Shown here: positions 13,113-21,417 of the stretch, in pieces
Numbering within the stretch: the stretch's first letter is position 1
Layout of the letters: each line of letters begins with the position of its first letter
Assembly: GCA_042568575.1 (NCBI GenBank)
Contig: JBHPIO010000002.1
Coordinates: 65,447 to 129,446, forward strand
Direction: 5' to 3'
DNA from: Patescibacteria group bacterium
Lineage (GTDB): Bacteria > Patescibacteriota > Gracilibacteria > UBA1369 > PNNO01
Length of the DNA: 64,000 bases
The notes under the pieces: generated by a model
What the model saw: the letters and a program-made list of their open reading frames with translations, nothing else
What the model was told of the DNA's origin: nothing
Databases searched by the model: none
Made by a program: the position numbers and the translations under genes

Positions 13113-15116
13113 TTATTTTTTCTCTGTGATAAGTATGTATTTGCAAGCTTTCTGCAAAGGTTTAAACGCTTTTCCTCCACCTTCCATAAATTTCCCGAAG
13201 AACTCAACGAACTGAAGACGACTTGAGTGGATAAACGCTCCAAGTGTCGAGATCGCTATATTCAAAGTGTGTCCGATTAAAATAACAATGATTGCGAATA
13301 CAATTCCTATATAAGGTATGCTTCCCACTAACCCAGCAATTGTATTAAATGCAAATCCAATAATTCCTGTTCCGAGCCCAAGAGCCATCAAACGTGAGTA
13401 TGAAAGTACGTCGGCGAAGTATCCAACTAGTCCGTATAGAGAAAGGACACCTGTTAAGAATTTCAAAATAATATTCTTTTGTTTTCTTCCTTGCGTAAGA
13501 ATAAGTGCTCCAACTCCGAAGTAAACAAGATACGTAATTGCTCCTGCATATTCCGGAAGGAAGATTCCTCCTTTACTTAATCCGAATAGACCCATGATTA
13601 TCAAGAAGTAGAACCAAAGGAAGCTATCGAATAATGCGTCTATATATTTTCCGTGTTTAATTTTCCAGTATCCATCAACAAGAACTCCGAATAGAACTTG
13701 AACGTATCCAAGAACTGCAGCAAGCATTAGGAATGTTAAAGGTCCACTTCCCTTAGTTGGGTTGATTATCTGCCATCTAAATGCCATTTCACCAGATTCG
13801 TCTACGTATGTTAGGAATCCAGGTGCTTGGTCTGCTGTCATTCCAAACCATCCACCGAATAGCGCTCCCAATATAAATGTAACGATTCCACCAAACATCA
13901 AAAGTTTCACTAAGTTCTTCATTCCGGCAGGAATCTTCAAGAATTTGAGTGCAAGGGCGCATATTACAAATAGAACGATTCCATATCCTGCGTCAGTCAA
14001 ACATAATCCAAAGAAGATAATGAAGAATGCTGCCAAGAATGGTGTTGGATCGATTTCACTTGGGAGCGGAAGTCCGTAAATGTTTGTTACCGCTTCAAAT
14101 GATCCAATCAAACCTTTGTTTTTAATTGCAACCGGTGCCTGTTCTTCTTCCGTCGGTTCGATTTCAAAAATTTCAAATGCGTTTGTTACTTTTTCAAGCC
14201 TTTCGTTGATTTTTTTAAGATTCTTTAAAGGAACCCATCCTTCTAACGTAAAGCTGGATTTAGTATTATAAGCTTTTTGTTCAGAATACATTTTATCTCT
14301 TTCCCAAACAAAATAGTCGTGAACAATCTGAAGATCTTCGTTTTTCTTTGCCAAAACCTTTAATTCTTCTTCTTGATTAGCAAGATCTTGTTCGATTTCA
14401 GATTTTCTTTCCTTAATCTCTTTTAATTCCGTTTTTACATCGTGTTTTCGTGATGGCAGGTCAACTTCACTTAATTTATGCATCATGAAAACCTCTTTAA
14501 CTTGAGGTTCAACTTCTTTTGCAAAAGTTAGCGCAACGTAAGTTGTGCTTTCGTCTTCGTTAATTTTATCTACATTAAGTAGTTTTGAAACTTTTTTAAT
14601 ATCTTCAACAAATTCTGCATATGCAGTTTTTTGAATAGTTCCAAGGATGGTTTTTGTTCTTTCAGTTTCGCCAATATGATCAAGTGGCATTGAAAGTGAT
14701 TGCCATGCCCCAAGTTCTTCTTGCGACATTTGAAGTGCGGCAAGTTCATTCCTTAAAGCAACCATAGTTTCTTCAACTGTGCGACACTGTTTAATAATAG
14801 TATCGAAGTTGAATTCTTTTGCTTTCTTTTTAACGTCATCGATAGTTAAAACAAGCGGACCTTGGATTAGGTTCCGGTGTTTTGCGTAAGGCTTGATAAG
14901 TTTTAGAGCGAAATCGATATTTGCAATATTAAGCTCTACTGAATGTAGCGCCTCCATTTGTTCTGGTGATTGATTGATTAGTTCTCTTTCCTCTGCTTTT
15001 TCATCTATAATTTCTGTGATTTCCAAAGCCCCTAATGACTGCAACGAGTCCAACAACTTCTGTTTATGACTTCCAGAAGCTACTAATTTGATTTTTTGCA
15101 TTGAAATGACCGCCAT
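13113..15116 (-). CDS. ntpI: V/A-type ATP synthase subunit I (a)
   Basis: EIDPTP, DVLSYSRLMALG, HSSRLQFVEFFGKF. Confidence 0.95.
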   Translation of the reverse strand: MAVISMQKIKLVASGSHKQKLLDSLQSLGALEITEIIDEKAEERELINQSPEQMEALHSVELNIANIDFALKLIKPYAKHRNLIQGPLVLTIDDVKKKAKEFNFDTIIKQCRTVEETMVALRNELAALQMSQEELGAWQSLSMPLDHIGETERTKTILGTIQKTAYAEFVEDIKKVSKLLNVDKINEDESTTYVALTFAKEVEPQVKEVFMMHKLSEVDLPSRKHDVKTELKEIKERKSEIEQDLANQEEELKVLAKKNEDLQIVHDYFVWERDKMYSEQKAYNTKSSFTLEGWVPLKNLKKINERLEKVTNAFEIFEIEPTEEEQAPVAIKNKGLIGSFEAVTNIYGLPLPSEIDPTPFLAAFFIIFFGLCLTDAGYGIVLFVICALALKFLKIPAGMKNLVKLLMFGGIVTFILGALFGGWFGMTADQAPGFLTYVDESGEMAFRWQIINPTKGSGPLTFLMLAAVLGYVQVLFGVLVDGYWKIKHGKYIDALFDSFLWFYFLIIMGLFGLSKGGIFLPEYAGAITYLVYFGVGALILTQGRKQKNIILKFLTGVLSLYGLVGYFADVLSYSRLMALGLGTGIIGFAFNTIAGLVGSIPYIGIVFAIIVILIGHTLNIAISTLGAFIHSSRLQFVEFFGKFMEGGGKAFKPLQKACKYILITEKK

Positions 15117-16308: not shown

Positions 16309-17496
16309 ATGTCAGAGGAAAGACCGGAAGATTCGTTTGGATGTACTGAGTTTGGTTGGTTAAAAATTCGTGAACTTGATGATGAAAGGTATGAGAAAGA
16401 TGATATCCCGGAGACTTCTGAGGAATTTTTAGAGTTAATTCGAGAAATGAATGCGCTTGAAGCGCATTTGGATGCTTATGATTCTGAAGACATAAATGCT
16501 GGTAGACAGCTTATGTTTGTTCGACGTCATTTCCATAGAGTCCTAGAGGAGAAACCAGAAATAGCTCTTCAAGTAATTGGTGAGTTGGAGAAAAAGATTC
16601 AATCTTCAACATCGGATGAAGATCCTTTTCGTTGGAGTAGCTCGTCGCCTCTTGACCTTGTTCGTTACGTTAGGCTTTCACCAATATTGAAAGATAATGT
16701 AAGGGTGTGGGGACTTCTTGAACCCATTGCCAATAATGTGAACGATTATTATGAATCACGTGATGCTTCTGATATTCCTTCTTCTATTCCAATTGAAAGA
16801 GTATGTGAAGCTATTCAGTCTTTTACAGAATTGTATCCTGATCACATTCTGGCAGCAGACACACTTGAAATGATGGAATGCGTCTTAGCTAGCTATATGA
16901 TTGCAGAGGCATCTGTTGTAACTAGTGAGGCAGATGAAACGAGAAAAAGAATTGAGCAACTTTTAGGGCTTGCTGGGGAAGCGAGTTCTCGTAGTTTTAA
17001 CTCTAACCTTGATGTAACCCTGGAGAGGGGATTCCTTCGCGAAGTTGAACGAGAGGTCGGTTTACCTGTTTTATCCATGGCTGTATCAAATGATGTATTG
17101 CATAGAAAGGCAATAAAAGAATATGTACTTTATTTAATTGAGGCAGGAGATTCAAAAAGAGCTTCAGAAATATGTGCCGAAATTTTAAATGAAGATCCGG
17201 ATTCGGTTTTGGGTCAAACTTTATATGTAAGAATATTCCTTGGTAGAGGCACTGAATTGATCCCAGAAGAAATGAGGGATTTATACACTCGTCTTGGTTT
17301 AATGTTATTAAAAGAATCACTAAACCCAGAAATTTATTATTTGTTAGGACTTCTTGATTTAAAGAATTTGGAAAATGACGAACAAGCCAGAAGCAACGTA
17401 CTTTTAAATATTGGTCATATAGATCGATGCGACCCGGAAGATAAACTTGGTTATGGGAAATTACTTATAGAAGCTTTTCAACACGTAAGTAATTAG
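16309..17496 (+). CDS. Acidic hypothetical protein, possible C-terminal TPR-like helices
   Basis: 395 aa ORF; ILNEDPDS and NPEIYYLLG are TPR-like turns. Confidence 0.7.
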   Translation: MSEERPEDSFGCTEFGWLKIRELDDERYEKDDIPETSEEFLELIREMNALEAHLDAYDSEDINAGRQLMFVRRHFHRVLEEKPEIALQVIGELEKKIQSSTSDEDPFRWSSSSPLDLVRYVRLSPILKDNVRVWGLLEPIANNVNDYYESRDASDIPSSIPIERVCEAIQSFTELYPDHILAADTLEMMECVLASYMIAEASVVTSEADETRKRIEQLLGLAGEASSRSFNSNLDVTLERGFLREVEREVGLPVLSMAVSNDVLHRKAIKEYVLYLIEAGDSKRASEICAEILNEDPDSVLGQTLYVRIFLGRGTELIPEEMRDLYTRLGLMLLKESLNPEIYYLLGLLDLKNLENDEQARSNVLLNIGHIDRCDPEDKLGYGKLLIEAFQHVSN

Positions 17497-20099
17497 TTGG
17501 ATCCAAAGCTTTTTCTTTCAATTCTCACACCTTCCGGCAATGATCTTAAAAACAGGTTGCCGTAGCTTTTTGTAACGACACGTGAATCCATGACGATTAC
17601 TTTTCCGCTATCTCGTGAAGAACGGATTAATCTACCAAATCCTTGCTTGAAGCGCAAAATCGCTCTTGGGATTTGATATTCATTAAATTGGTTTTCATAA
17701 AGCGCAGAACGCCTTGAGTGAATTGGATCATCTGGTGGATCGAACGGTAGCTTCTGAATAATTACGCAATTCAAAGCCTCTCCTTTTATATCTACACCTT
17801 CCCAAAAACTGTTTGTCCCAAAAATAATTGAATGATCTGGATCTTGCTTAAAGAGTTCAATGATTTTCCCACGTCCACCTGAAACGTTTTGGCCGAGAAT
17901 AGTTATGCCTTGTTGTTTTAATATAGGGGCAAGTGTGAGATAAGTCGCTTCAATAGCTTTTTTGGCTGTAAACAGCACGAGCATTTTCCCACCATTCTCC
18001 TCGGCGGTTTTTCTAATAATTTCACAAGACTGATCAAAATAACCGGGAGTTGCTGGTGCTTTTAAGTTGTCGTAAACAACAACTTCCACTTGGTCCGGAT
18101 ATGAGAAGTGAGAATGCAAGATACATTCCTCAAAGTGTTCATCCAATGCGAGCTGACTCCTTATGTAAGCAAAAGAGCTATCAACAGTTAAAGTTGCCGA
18201 CGTCATTATTATGCTTTCCTTTTGAGAGAACAGGCCATCCTGCAAATGAGTTCCAACATTCACTGGAGTGGATTTGATTCCAACAGTATCATCATACTTT
18301 TTATATAGCCATGTGATGTTATCTTCATCTTGCTGCTCAAGAACAACAAAAGAAAGTGCATTTATAAGTTCGAGCATACTTGAACTTTCTTGCTGAATTC
18401 TGTCATCGTCTTCTTCATGCTCTGCTAGTTCTTTAAGGAGGGCGCGTCCTTGCAGCACCACGTTTTCTGCTGAGTCAGTAACTTTTTTCCATTCAAATTC
18501 CGCCTTGAAATTCTCATTCAACATTAAATTTTGGATACTATTCGCGTATTCAACATTCTTTTGAAAGAAGATTCCAAGAAGGCCAAACAGAATACTTATT
18601 TTATCTTTTAATGATTCAATTTTATCAACAACTTCGCTATATTTTTTTACAAGATCTCTAATTGTATTTAAAGGGTGGTCGAAAATATCAACAGCAAGAT
18701 TTATTGTGAGTGCCTTTGTGGCTTCGTTTTCAATATGATGTGCCTCATCAACAACAAGGTAATTATGCTCAGGAAGTACTGCATGATTCGACATAGCATC
18801 GCTTAATAAAAGAGCATGGTTCGTTATAATCAAATCAGATTCATTTGCTCTTTCTCGAGCGAGAGAAAGGAAGCACTTCGCGTTGTATCGAGCGTCATTA
18901 TGCGGGCATTTAATTCCATCGCAGCAAACATCGTTCCAGGCAAAATATTCACGACCTTGCAGAGAAAGCTCCTCTTTATCTCCAGTTTGAGTACGAGGAA
19001 GCCAAAGCAAAATTTTAATTAGCATTGTGATTTCGTGCTCCTGGAAAGAATTCTTCTGTTTATACTTATCCAGACGTTCACCAGAAAGGTAGTTCTTTCG
19101 TCCTTTTAGAACTGTTGCAGAAAACGGAGGTGGAGCGTTTTCATCTTTTTTCAAATATAGATTGATCGCTTTTTGAACTTTTGGAATGTCTTTATTAAAT
19201 AACTGATCCTGCAGGTTCTTTGTATGAGTTGAGATAACAACTTTCTCGTTATCGTAACGACTGCGGAATGCAGAAGCCATTAGATATGCAATAGACTTCC
19301 CAGTTCCAGTTCCAGCCTCGCAAAGCAAGTGATGACTATTTTTAAACGCATCAATTATTTTACTAGTCATTTCAGTTTGAGGTTCGCGGACTTCGTAATC
19401 TGTTTCACATTTACTTAGTGGGCCATCCTCTTTATACATAGAAAGAATTTCTTCTTTGTCGAATTTGAGCGTTTCTGTATCTGCAATGATTCGAGGAGTT
19501 CTTTTAGTTGGTTTAGCGTGCTCACTAGACTTATGCGTCAAAAACAAATCTTTAAGTGACCAATTTGATCTTTTAACAAGAACTTTTATTTCTTCAAGAA
19601 TGTCATGATCGATTTCGCTAATTTTCTTTGCAAGTTGTTGGAAAAGTATTGCTGAAGCAATCGCGTCATCGAGTGCTCTGTGTTTTGCCTTATGATCTAT
19701 TTCAAGTTTCTGTGTGATCATTTCAAGGCTATATGTTGGAAGTCCGGGTAGAAGCATCTGCGAAAGTGGAAGTGTATCGTATGTGATGTTCTCAAATACA
19801 ATTCCCTTAGCTCTTAGAAAACCAAGATCAAATTGTATGCTGTGTCCGACGATAGGATAATCACCAATGAAATCCATGAACTCTTCCTGGACGTCTTCTA
19901 TATTAGGTGCCCCTTCAAGATCCGCATCGGTGATACTTGTAATATGTGTGATTAGCGGTGGCAGCGGTTCGGACGCTTTTAAGAACGTTTGGTATTTCTT
20001 GAGAATTTTGTCGTTATCAAAAAGGGTTGCTCCCAGTTCAATGATCTCGTCACGTTCTGCAGACAGGCCTGTAGTTTCTATATCGAGTGCGATGTACAT
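17493..20099 (-). CDS. dinG: DinG family helicase with N-terminal DEDDh (DnaQ-like) exonuclease
   Basis: ALDIETTGL, HRALDDA; EAGTGTGKS, DEAHH, FWEGVD, QGFGRLIR. Confidence 0.93.
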   Translation of the reverse strand: MYIALDIETTGLSAERDEIIELGATLFDNDKILKKYQTFLKASEPLPPLITHITSITDADLEGAPNIEDVQEEFMDFIGDYPIVGHSIQFDLGFLRAKGIVFENITYDTLPLSQMLLPGLPTYSLEMITQKLEIDHKAKHRALDDAIASAILFQQLAKKISEIDHDILEEIKVLVKRSNWSLKDLFLTHKSSEHAKPTKRTPRIIADTETLKFDKEEILSMYKEDGPLSKCETDYEVREPQTEMTSKIIDAFKNSHHLLCEAGTGTGKSIAYLMASAFRSRYDNEKVVISTHTKNLQDQLFNKDIPKVQKAINLYLKKDENAPPPFSATVLKGRKNYLSGERLDKYKQKNSFQEHEITMLIKILLWLPRTQTGDKEELSLQGREYFAWNDVCCDGIKCPHNDARYNAKCFLSLARERANESDLIITNHALLLSDAMSNHAVLPEHNYLVVDEAHHIENEATKALTINLAVDIFDHPLNTIRDLVKKYSEVVDKIESLKDKISILFGLLGIFFQKNVEYANSIQNLMLNENFKAEFEWKKVTDSAENVVLQGRALLKELAEHEEDDDRIQQESSSMLELINALSFVVLEQQDEDNITWLYKKYDDTVGIKSTPVNVGTHLQDGLFSQKESIIMTSATLTVDSSFAYIRSQLALDEHFEECILHSHFSYPDQVEVVVYDNLKAPATPGYFDQSCEIIRKTAEENGGKMLVLFTAKKAIEATYLTLAPILKQQGITILGQNVSGGRGKIIELFKQDPDHSIIFGTNSFWEGVDIKGEALNCVIIQKLPFDPPDDPIHSRRSALYENQFNEYQIPRAILRFKQGFGRLIRSSRDSGKVIVMDSRVVTKSYGNLFLRSLPEGVRIERKSFGSN

Positions 20100-20209
20100 A
20101 GTGCGGTTTCTTTTATTCTTTTCGTTCGGGCGTTCATTATATCAGAAAGGTTGGGCTAGGTCGTTCAAAAAATTAGATAATATCCTACAAACATGTCCAC
20201 GCTAATATT

Positions 20210-20238
20210 TTGACAAAAAAATACAAATTTTATATAGT
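20210..20238 (+). promoter_or_regulatory. sigma70 promoter of the non-coding unit
   Basis: TTGACA-17 bp-TATAGT. Confidence 0.75.
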
Positions 20239-20244
20239 GTTTTG

Positions 20245-20676
20245 AAGCTTTAAAAAAGAAACAAAAAGTTCACGAAAAAAAACACCAAAAAAAAGTTTCA
20301 AAACAAAAAATAAAAAAGTTCTTTAAAAAAAAGTGTCATAGCTAGAGAACGATGGGGAGAAGAAATTCCTCATACGAGACGATTCGTCTCAGAGCACCCA
20401 ACCTTAATAAGTTTCTGCTCCTCTCATTCTTTAGCTCAGCGATGGAATAGTGAATGACTATCATTATCCCAACCCACACAGTTGCCTGGTGATATCCTTC
20501 GTACTTCGGTACACGCGATGTCACACCCACGGGCGGTCGATGGCTCGACTGGAAACTAATGCCAAAGCTGGGCTGTAAGTTGCACTCGTCATGTTTAAAA
20601 CAAAAACAAATCTTGGACTGCCTAACATAAAAAGTAGTTGATAAGATTTCAACCCCACCTCGGTGGGGTTTTTTTG
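20245..20676 (+). ncRNA. Unassigned structured ncRNA candidate (~430 nt)
   Basis: Bounded by promoter and intrinsic terminator; boxA-like GTTCTTTAAAA; many stems with G-U pairs and a cUUCGg tetraloop; no credible plus-strand ORF. Confidence 0.6.
20651..20676 (+). terminator. Rho-independent terminator
   Basis: aaccccac-ctcg-gtggggtt followed by a T run. Confidence 0.85.
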
Positions 20677-20829
20677 TGGACAAAAATAGGCATTCTAATT
20701 ATAGTGTGCCCTCGGATTTCTTGTTATATCCAGTTTTCCTGCTAAACTTAAAAAAGATTCAGTACTTAGTACTGAATAATAAATGGCTAGTGTTAGGCAA
20801 TTAGCAATTAGTACTAAGTACTCAATAAA

Positions 20830-21417
20830 ATGATAGACACCGAATGGCTTATCGTTGTTGTCGGATGGACAATTGTCCTTATGACGCTCTCAATTACGCA
20901 CTTAAAACTGTATAGAGTTGGTGGTGGGCTTTATTCTCTCGAAGATCAGAAAATCAAAACGGAGAAGTGGATTGTTCGTAGTGTAACTTTTGTTTATTTG
21001 ATTGCGGCTTTTGCGATTGCAAGTCAGGCGTTTTTCCCGGCTTTTGATGAAATGTTTGACGTTACCAGGTACTATTTCGTTATAGTCGGAGTGATACTTT
21101 TTGCCATGGCTTTGATCTTTTTTATAATGGCAAGAGTTGCACTTGGTAGCAATTGGTCGTGGAGTGGATATCTTCTGCGTGATCGTCATAAATTAATTAC
21201 AATAGGTCCATACGGATTTATTCGTCATCCTCTATATACAGCCTATATGGTTGCGGGTCTTGCTTCCGGGCTTATTCTCACAGATTCAAGAATCATAATT
21301 TTTGTTGTTTTGCTTTCGCCAATTATTTATTGGAAAGCGCTCATCGAAGAACAGCATCTCCGAATGATTTTTCCGGAGTACAAAGATTATGAAAAAAAGA
21401 CTCGAATGTTTCTTTAA
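20830..21417 (+). CDS. Isoprenylcysteine carboxyl methyltransferase (ICMT/PEMT) family membrane protein
   Basis: LGSNWS, HKLITIGPYGFIRHPLY, EEQHL..F.EY..Y. Confidence 0.9.
   Translation: MIDTEWLIVVVGWTIVLMTLSITHLKLYRVGGGLYSLEDQKIKTEKWIVRSVTFVYLIAAFAIASQAFFPAFDEMFDVTRYYFVIVGVILFAMALIFFIMARVALGSNWSWSGYLLRDRHKLITIGPYGFIRHPLYTAYMVAGLASGLILTDSRIIIFVVLLSPIIYWKALIEEQHLRMIFPEYKDYEKKTRMFL

Follow-up and report, generated by a model that had tools for sequence, protein, structure and literature searches.

A predicted large, doubly knotted non-coding RNA encoded by a stand-alone gene in Peregrinibacteria and related genomes of the candidate phyla radiation

Introduction

The large bacterial RNAs OLE, the raiA motif, ROOL and GOLLD are each encoded by a stand-alone gene of several hundred nucleotides (nt), fold into many covarying helices with pseudoknots, carry invariant unpaired blocks, are restricted to particular lineages yet widespread inside them, and have no known biochemical function; such RNAs are the subject of PMC9723947, PMC10861870, PMC11706538 and PMC12286853. 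The same features are found in the RNA described here, which was flagged at positions 20245-20676 of a 64,000-nt stretch of DNA from a Patescibacteria group bacterium (contig JBHPIO010000002.1, positions 65,447 to 129,446 of the forward strand; the whole stretch is termed the window, and the genome, G000, amounts to 1.20 Mb in 31 contigs with 82% completeness). It differs from those RNAs in having no match in Rfam 15 scans, in residing in Peregrinibacteria of the candidate phyla radiation (CPR) rather than in Bacillota or phages, and in having an A/C-rich repeat, two paralogues per genome and no adjoining gene for an associated protein.

Two other kinds of RNA offer partial comparisons. 6S RNA, CsrB/RsmZ and CrcZ (with A-rich motifs for Hfq/Crc) are protein-sequestering RNAs, which the present RNA resembles in having its own transcription unit ended by a terminator and single-stranded motif repeats that are enriched and strand-specific. 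In contrast to the situation with these RNAs, the 6S RNA of the genome is located elsewhere, Hfq was not found in the five genomes searched, and the repeated motif is A4-5 C A5 C/U A3 and not GGA. Sponge RNAs normally have no conserved doubly knotted core. The PK1 region of transfer-messenger RNA (tmRNA) shows a likeness in that a hairpin loop pairs downstream past an A-rich linker and is followed by an A-rich single strand. Unlike tmRNA, the RNA has no conserved tag frame, and ARAGORN detects neither a tmRNA nor a tRNA in the window, so a tRNA-like domain is lacking. The RNA belongs to no known RNA family and is new in that sense, whereas its mode of action may prove familiar.

No publication on non-coding RNAs of Peregrinibacteria, Patescibacteria or Gracilibacteria was found in the literature search, and the supplementary motif lists of surveys could name the motif otherwise. 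In the accessible part of the Peribacteria genome paper (PMC4736985), which describes a small genome with nucleotide-synthesis genes, in agreement with a Peregrinibacteria-type CPR member as the source of the window, "RNA" occurs four times, in no case referring to such an RNA, and "non-coding" does not occur.

Results

The flagged stretch is, as judged from its sequence, a real gene for a predicted folded non-coding RNA of about 430 nt that stands alone and spans positions 20243-20676 of the window (+ strand), with transcription read from the conservation of promoter and terminator. The sigma-70-type promoter (20210-20238, +) was located with a consensus scan and has 11 of 12 consensus positions, with the -35 element TTGACA at 20210-20215, a 17-nt spacer and the -10 element TATAGT at 20233-20238, and the transcript probably starts at or just past a conserved TGA(A/T) box at 20243. 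The intrinsic terminator (20651-20676, +) is formed by an 8-bp G+C-rich stem with a 4-nt loop (stem-loop 20651-20670) followed by a T-run. Both signals had been named in a preliminary description made from the letters alone, and both are recovered by the scans and recur in orthologues. The -35 and -10 elements are kept in the orthologues of the family and in both paralogues with the TGA box placed 3-5 nt past the -10 element, and the -10 element plus TGAAAC is present in further families too. The terminator stem covaries, with positions 510-515 of the RNAalifold alignment paired with 524-529.

The strand is indicated by the folding energy and by the distribution of G-U pairs. The 432 nt between promoter and terminator have a fold z-score of -3.67 on the + strand, with 0 of 100 shuffles folding as well, compared with -0.80 on the minus strand, where 22 of 100 shuffles do so. 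The expectation in the preliminary description that G-U pairs favor the + strand is borne out by these z-scores together with the counts in 69 distinct sequences, in which the first pair of stem Pe is G-U in 57 and helix Pa has U-G in 37 (helices are defined below).

The RNA is conserved well beyond the genus. The genome sets searched are samples, in which "not found" is not "absent". BLAST with positions 20330-20680 finds an orthologue in 11 of the 12 other genomes of the family, and the 12 family orthologues align over their full length with the promoter, leader, helices, A/C-rich motif, 3' stem-loop and terminator all kept. A covariance model of the core of about 145 nt (model R1, made from 14 sequences with 150 positions and 37 pairs) detects the RNA in 86 of the 151 genomes of the order, with one or two copies apiece, the best match outside the family having an E value of 5e-23. 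The carriers amount to 12/12, 21/22, 10/10 and 20/22 genomes in four families, and R1 matches 0/8, 1/22 and 0/16 genomes in three families of the same order. The broader model R2 (87 sequences, 69 distinct) matches 24 of 151 genomes in the class sample, including families outside the order (11/13, 2/7 and 1/7), and 0 of 150 other genomes in the phylum sample. A degenerate pattern derived from the pseudoknot gives 48 stretches in public species genomes, 47 of which also match the covariance model; a pattern match in a Dokdonella metagenome-assembled genome (MAG; locus L094) is negative with the covariance model and was rejected as a chance match. The named carriers among the model-positive public genomes are Candidatus Peregrinibacteria, Peribacteria, Gracilibacteria and "Patescibacteria group" MAGs, and one is labelled Bacteroidetes.

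A second, paralogous locus, termed type 2, was found by BLAST in the same genome at G000:C7:21851-21984 (-). The type-2 RNA gene extends over L002:1418-1809 (-), corresponding to about G000:C7:21768-22159, and has a core scoring 92-99 bits, the A/C-rich motif, a terminator and a different 5' domain. The features common to types 1 and 2 are the core, the A/C-rich motif, the style of promoter and the terminator, and most genomes of the family carry both.

Two alignments of different construction bear on the fold. The MAFFT alignment of 14 cores is not fitted to any structure; 80.4% of its cells are paired, compared with 68.5 ± 1.0% for column shuffles and 35-42% for slid partners, and 25 of 41 pairs are changed on both sides. 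The alignment of 69 distinct sequences was fitted to the model and leans toward the modelled helices, with 85.8% of cells paired compared with 66.7 ± 0.6 when shuffled and 34-40% when slid, and double changes in 35 of 41 pairs. The covariation supports a predicted arrangement of five helices, an H-type pseudoknot and a pairing between a hairpin loop and a downstream segment.

The conserved core (20434-20573, +; models R1 and R2) is closed by helix Pa, in which GCTCAGC (20434-20440) pairs with GCTGGGC (20567-20573) and which is 88.8% paired in the 69 sequences with six of seven pairs changed on both sides. Directly 3' of the first strand of Pa is a near-invariant GATGG (20441-20445). Hairpin Pb (20444-20469) is 70% paired, a value that includes alignment slippage, with eight of nine pairs double-changed, and its loop has the conserved sequence (A/G)UGAC(U/C), present as ATGAC at 20454-20458 in the window. 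Helix Pc (GCCTG 20484-20488 with CGGGC 20530-20534) is 97.4% paired with all five pairs changed on both sides and encloses hairpin Pd (20489-20524), which is 83.7% paired with changes on both sides in eight of eight pairs and has a cUUCGg cap (20501-20512) in the window. The Pc/Pd region (20484-20534) has an A-rich 3' junction. Stem Pe (20535-20550), formed by GGTC (20535-20538) and GACT (20547-20550), is 99.6% paired and shows C-G to G-C swaps. Three of these elements coincide with pairings proposed in the preliminary description, Pb with ggaatagtga/tcattatcc, Pd with gtgatatc/gatgtcac and its UUCG cap, and Pe with ggtcga-tggc-tcgact.

The loop of Pe takes part in the first of two tertiary pairings. 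PK1 is an H-type pseudoknot in the region 20535-20564 (+), with the loop TGGC (20541-20544) pairing with GCCA (20561-20564). What had been offered as a possible pseudoknot is 96.4% paired in the 69 distinct sequences, with the fourth pair changing from C-G (54 of 69) to A-U (4) or U-A (4), and this count is unbiased by the fit because PK1 was left out of the model with which the alignment was made. Together with its A-rich linker GGAAAC, PK1 has the layout of a classical H-type pseudoknot.

The second tertiary pairing, PK2, is absent from the preliminary description and joins the Pb loop AUGAC (20454-20458) with GUCAU (GTCAT in the DNA, 20588-20592, +), on the basis of duplex scores and covariation. 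The GUCA partner of the Pb loop is placed 10-40 nt past the core and in many relatives lies inside the loop of a small hairpin, where PK2 would be a kissing-loop contact. The mean best duplex score for cognate loop and downstream sequences is 13.64, above 5000 of 5000 partner permutations, with shuffled downstream sequences giving 10.36 ± 0.24. Anchoring on GAC/GUC works in 64 of the 69 sequences and the neighboring PK2 pair is formed in 55 of these 64 (C-G 28, U-A 19, U-G 5, G-C 3). Five sequences are unanchored, three of which have a compensating change of the GAC/GUC core itself, judged by eye, and two of which are closely similar to each other and unpaired.

The core contains three near-invariant unpaired blocks, GAUGG, GGAAAC and AAAGC. 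These blocks, the size of the RNA and the two covarying tertiary pairings would also be in keeping with a ribozyme or a self-assembling RNA-only particle, in which an active site would be created, or several copies linked into an oligomer, through the knotted core and the loop-loop contact, and this reading is regarded as unlikely since no ribozyme or ornate-RNA family of Rfam 15 is matched and no conserved cleavage-site signature is recognised. The pairing of the Pb loop with the downstream loop could be intermolecular as well as intramolecular, and nothing in the sequence distinguishes the two; the genomic context, showing no evident protein partner, is a further point in favor of an RNA-only assembly.

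Outside the core, the 5' leader (20245-20340, +) is A-rich and G-poor with repeated A/C-rich tracts, varies in length among orthologues and is largely unpaired in the predicted centroid. The 5' domain (20341-20433, +) is a long helix of a purine strand and a pyrimidine strand, TAGAGAA..GATGGGGAGAAGAAA with TTTCTGCTCCTCTCATTCTTTA, having a variable apex. RNAalifold applied to the 12 family orthologues yields 54 predicted pairs, of which 15 show compensatory changes on both sides, and the 5' domain helix appears as alignment positions 112-136 paired with 226-249, several of which are double-changed. The pairings gctagagaa/ttctttagc and ggggag/ctcctc of the preliminary description make up this long helix and have compensatory changes in the 12 orthologues. 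Domain 1, as drawn there at 20341-20435, is a real helix, but its last 2 nt (20434-20435) fit better into the long-range helix Pa closing domain 2, and the inner gagacg-att-cgtctc hairpin exists in the window but is peculiar to the species, the same-genus genome G001 having gagatgtctc and no cgtctc. A conserved CGCCCUAGAA box is found at the apex of the 5' domain in most other genera and families but has degenerated in the genus of the window; CGCCCTAGAA is seen in the family alignment and in further families. The 3' stem-loop (20608-20649, +) is formed by AAATCTTGGAC.. with ..GTTGATAAGATTT and has a conserved AU bulge, with alignment positions 460-470 paired with 493-505. In other families the 3' stem-loop consists of an outer helix of the AAAUUCC/GGAAUUU type and an inner hairpin, with order-wide compensating variants as judged by eye.

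The only long frame in the region is an antisense open reading frame (ORF) of 113 codons (20342-20683, -), which has no Pfam family and is interpreted as a chance open frame. A protein-coding gene on the minus strand would account for this open frame, but the longest antisense stop-free stretch falls from 110 codons in the window to 58 in the same-genus orthologue, and elsewhere among the 14 RNA regions it is 47-75 codons in eight others and 89-134 in four others. Indels in the alignment are not multiples of three and the substitutions compensate RNA helices. The coding reading is counted as refuted by the frame not being kept, and its probability is negligible; the preliminary view that the region has no convincing ORF is upheld. 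A small ORF behind the A/C-rich motif (UUG start at 20614) was also rejected, as orthologues differ in frame and length and the segment is a covarying stem, judged by eye.

Comparison with Rfam 15 (4227 families, including large and ornate RNAs, ribozymes and riboswitch aptamers) gives no match at the gathering score in the 64-kb window. When 20100-20850 is scanned permissively, with E values up to 10, just nine matches appear, all weak and far under the family thresholds, six of them on the 3' stem-loop and terminator and three at or past the terminator end, and the core is unmatched in 16 homologous loci at E values up to 0.05. This comparison had been suggested in the preliminary description, and the outcome for window, region and homologous loci agrees with its proposal of a new or very divergent large non-coding RNA, as do the antisense ORF not being kept and the homologues with compensatory changes in the order.

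Well-known RNAs of the genome are accounted for at other loci. The tmRNA (RF00023) is located at G000:C26:47449-47884 (113.7 bits), the RNase P RNA (RF00010, type A) at G000:C23:119243-119620 (168.8 bits) and the 6S RNA (RF00013) at G000:C26:55754-55907 (51.7 bits, over the cut-off). In G000 and four relatives a standard tmRNA and a type-A RNase P RNA are encoded away from the RNA described here, and G000 and three of these relatives carry 6S RNA. Three identities were considered and rejected. For 6S RNA the model is unmatched here, the fold is a multi-branch core and not a rod, and the real 6S RNA lies elsewhere. For tmRNA there is neither a tRNA-like domain nor a conserved tag frame, Rfam gives no match and the genuine tmRNA is at another locus. 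For RNase P RNA the model is unmatched in the window and region and the genuine gene is elsewhere. The unmatched family models are consistent with the earlier failure to see any motif of RNase P, tmRNA or signal recognition particle (SRP) RNA in the stretch.

SRP RNA is the only universal RNA that is unaccounted for, the small and large bacterial models (RF00169, RF01854) matching 0 of 5 genomes (G000, G001, G005, G006 and G013, three of them 99-100% complete), and the present RNA could on this ground be taken for a very divergent form of it. The proteins of the pathway are likewise missing from the searches: none of the 151 genomes in the class sample has an Ffh M domain over the cut-off (controls 14/14), and the five genomes give no real match to an SRP54-type GTPase (Ffh, FtsY; controls 14/14). 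No SRP-clan model matches the region 20100-20850 even at an E value of 10, and a search with a 15-nt helix-8 pattern gives noise-level matches, about 1.3 to 2.6 times the reversed-pattern control. The failure to find SRP RNA is put down to loss of the whole SRP pathway, and SRP subunits are described as absent from many CPR bacteria in PMC8080830. The RNA is found in only 24 of the 151 genomes of the class sample though the whole sample is without Ffh, and this distribution is so much narrower than the SRP loss that the two are not linked; an SRP identity is highly improbable.

The hallmark single-stranded tract of the RNA is the A/C-rich motif AAAACAAAAACAAA (20597-20610, +), which hardly varies across the family alignment. 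In the 69 distinct RNAs ACAAAAA[CT]AAA has 90 sense copies (2.08 per kb) and 0 antisense copies, compared with 0.016 per kb in the flanks, an enrichment of about 130-fold, and most of the few "flank" copies fall where the ORF-free region bearing the RNA extends further upstream. A sponge is expected to display a short motif repeatedly in its unpaired segments, and this is seen here, with at least one copy in 59 of the 69 RNAs and at least two in 26. The copies peak immediately downstream of the core and again 50-150 nt upstream of it. In one group of relatives, L090 (3337-4353) and similarly L103, L114, L115 and L128, the ORF-free region bearing the RNA is about 1 kb long, with a start-like box TATGAAGCTTGG and then the A/C-rich motif about 650-900 nt upstream of the core and promoter-like sites between. 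The long region represents a greatly extended 5' domain or else an additional RNA gene in tandem.

The 13-mer form of the motif has 10 copies in the genome of the window. The two RNAs account for two of them, three stand immediately ahead of an ORF's ATG, one falls among an ORF's first codons, and four lie inside ORFs, two in sense and two in antisense orientation. The four ORFs with the 13-mer before or just inside the start (G000:C12:26090-27577, C28:32084-33307, C30:27633-28268 (-) and C27:17351-18844) have no Pfam family and might share a regulator with the RNA. The Shine-Dalgarno sequence is nearly unused in this genome: of 679 ORFs with 200 codons or more, 2.7% have GGAG/GAGG among the 18 nt preceding the start, and the nucleotides from -16 to -1 before starts are A/T-rich with 8-10% G. 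A general mimic of translation starts was considered for the motif and rejected, as the 13-mer precedes 3 ORFs only in the genome and the four ORFs examined have no Pfam family.

Two further readings turn on this motif. In one, the RNA would be a base-pairing regulator with the A/C-rich tracts, or the CGCCCUAGAA loop in other genera, serving as seeds on mRNAs while the core stabilises the molecule or senses a signal. The two antisense copies of the 13-mer inside ORFs provide complementary mRNA sites, the single-stranded tracts are invariant at fixed positions, and a separate promoter and terminator are found as in trans-acting small RNAs; on the other side, the complementary sites are few, the length of about 430 nt with a 145-nt knotted core is far larger than in known seed-type small RNAs, Hfq was not found in the five genomes, and the CGCCCUAGAA box is degenerate in the window's own genus. 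Such a regulator is rather improbable. In the other reading the RNA would act as a global translation regulator, the counterpart for the ribosome of what 6S is for RNA polymerase, with the A/C-rich tracts imitating leaders and docking the 30S subunit or bS1, the core blocking or timing release, and the paralogues tuning initiation capacity. The motif before three start codons and the near absence of Shine-Dalgarno sequences bear on this idea, yet the motif is rare at real starts, and the idea is very unlikely to hold.

The region 20100-20830 is bounded by a divergent gene for a DinG-type helicase with an N-terminal exonuclease domain (17493-20099, -) and by a PEMT/ICMT-family gene (20830-21417, +), past which CarA is convergent. 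The type 1 setting has a divergent DinG-like gene and a convergent CarA, with the PEMT-like gene between in some genomes only, and in the type 2 setting the divergent gene is of the F420-ligase family and the convergent one is MscS-like. Neighbors of the RNA loci also include a PurN-like formyltransferase, serine dehydratase and shikimate dehydrogenase. In 48 loci the downstream neighbors are convergent (CarA, MscS-like) or variable and the upstream neighbor is divergent. A role as a leader or riboswitch is unlikely because no gene regularly follows the RNA in the same orientation, leaving no cis target.

A cis-acting leader or riboswitch steering the neighboring gene through the terminator is suggested by the arrangement in the window, where the PEMT/ICMT-family gene follows the intrinsic terminator on the same strand 150 nt on, and by an RNAalifold proposal that GAUGG could pair with CCA instead of PK1, a hint of two conformations. 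The covariation backs PK1 and not the alternative pairing, a separate promoter-like site is present past the terminator, and a same-strand downstream gene occurs in few type-1 loci only, with a convergent CarA (type 1) or MscS-like gene (type 2) elsewhere. Synteny thus largely refutes the cis reading, which retains a very slight probability.

Several other features were observed in the surroundings of the RNA genes. Two palindromic boxes AGTACTnAGTACT (20758-20776 and 20810-20822) lie between the RNA terminator and the ATG of the PEMT/ICMT-like gene (20830) and could be an operator pair of that gene; in the terminator scan the first box (20758-20776) is picked up as a terminator-like hairpin of the minus strand as well. 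The type-2 RNA is followed, some 440 nt further downstream, by a candidate type III hammerhead ribozyme of textbook appearance (L002:909-975 (-), about G000:C7:21259-21325), which combines CUGAUGA, a stem and GAAA with an open stem III and scores 36.5 bits (gathering score 48.5) with an E value of 2.5e-4. The ORF at 13113-15116 (-) of the window has a V-type ATPase subunit I domain (PF01496, E 1e-20), and this CPR genome consequently has a V/A-type ATPase gene.

Discussion

The reading that is modestly favored is a non-coding RNA of about 430 nt, highly structured and acting in trans, that is the founding member of an uncatalogued family and probably serves as a protein-binding scaffold or sponge, the function being suggested by the fold, the repeated motif and the gene arrangement. 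A mechanism is put forward only tentatively, in which the RNA, like 6S, CsrB or CrcZ, would act as the scaffold or sponge of a stable ribonucleoprotein. Its knotted core with the two tertiary locks would form a specific binding module for a protein or a small ligand, and the exposed, repeated A/C-rich tracts would be occupied by a binder of single-stranded RNA, with bS1 or the 30S subunit as possible candidates, in an organism where translation starts on G-poor, A-rich leaders that have no Shine-Dalgarno sequence.

Several observations weigh against this interpretation. The search of sequencing runs listed no RNA run containing the stretch, and four DNA runs only with shares of 0.04-0.11 of its words, so that transcription is read from the conservation of promoter and terminator and the RNA is presumed to be expressed. 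Hfq is the classical binder of A-R-N repeats, and the Hfq family (PF17209) was not found in 5 of 5 genomes, on which ground an Hfq sponge was rejected. The neighbors are ordinary metabolic or repair genes, with none for a reverse transcriptase, nuclease, Cas or RNA-binding protein among them. The A/C-rich motif is rare at real starts (3 ORFs), and the RNA is therefore not a general mimic of initiation regions. The ornate, doubly knotted core exceeds what a simple sponge would need and would be just as fitting in a ribozyme, a ligand sensor or an RNA-only assembly. The pair counts from the 69 sequences lean toward the model structure, the alignment having been fitted to the model. Lastly, in the three nearly empty families of the order the RNA is either dispensable or too diverged. 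The rest of the probability falls on functions other than those considered here.

The genomes of CPR bacteria are tiny, yet many genomes of one order keep one or two copies of a doubly knotted RNA of 400-450 nt, and such conservation is a signature of RNAs like RNase P, tmRNA, 6S, OLE and raiA. The covariance models and alignments R1, R2, A2 and A4 allow immediate annotation of the RNA in MAGs. If the family is real, it would represent a new class of large RNA with a well-defined fold for structural work, and it would offer a handle on regulation in uncultured bacteria in which SRP and Hfq were not found in the genomes searched and Shine-Dalgarno sequences are rare.

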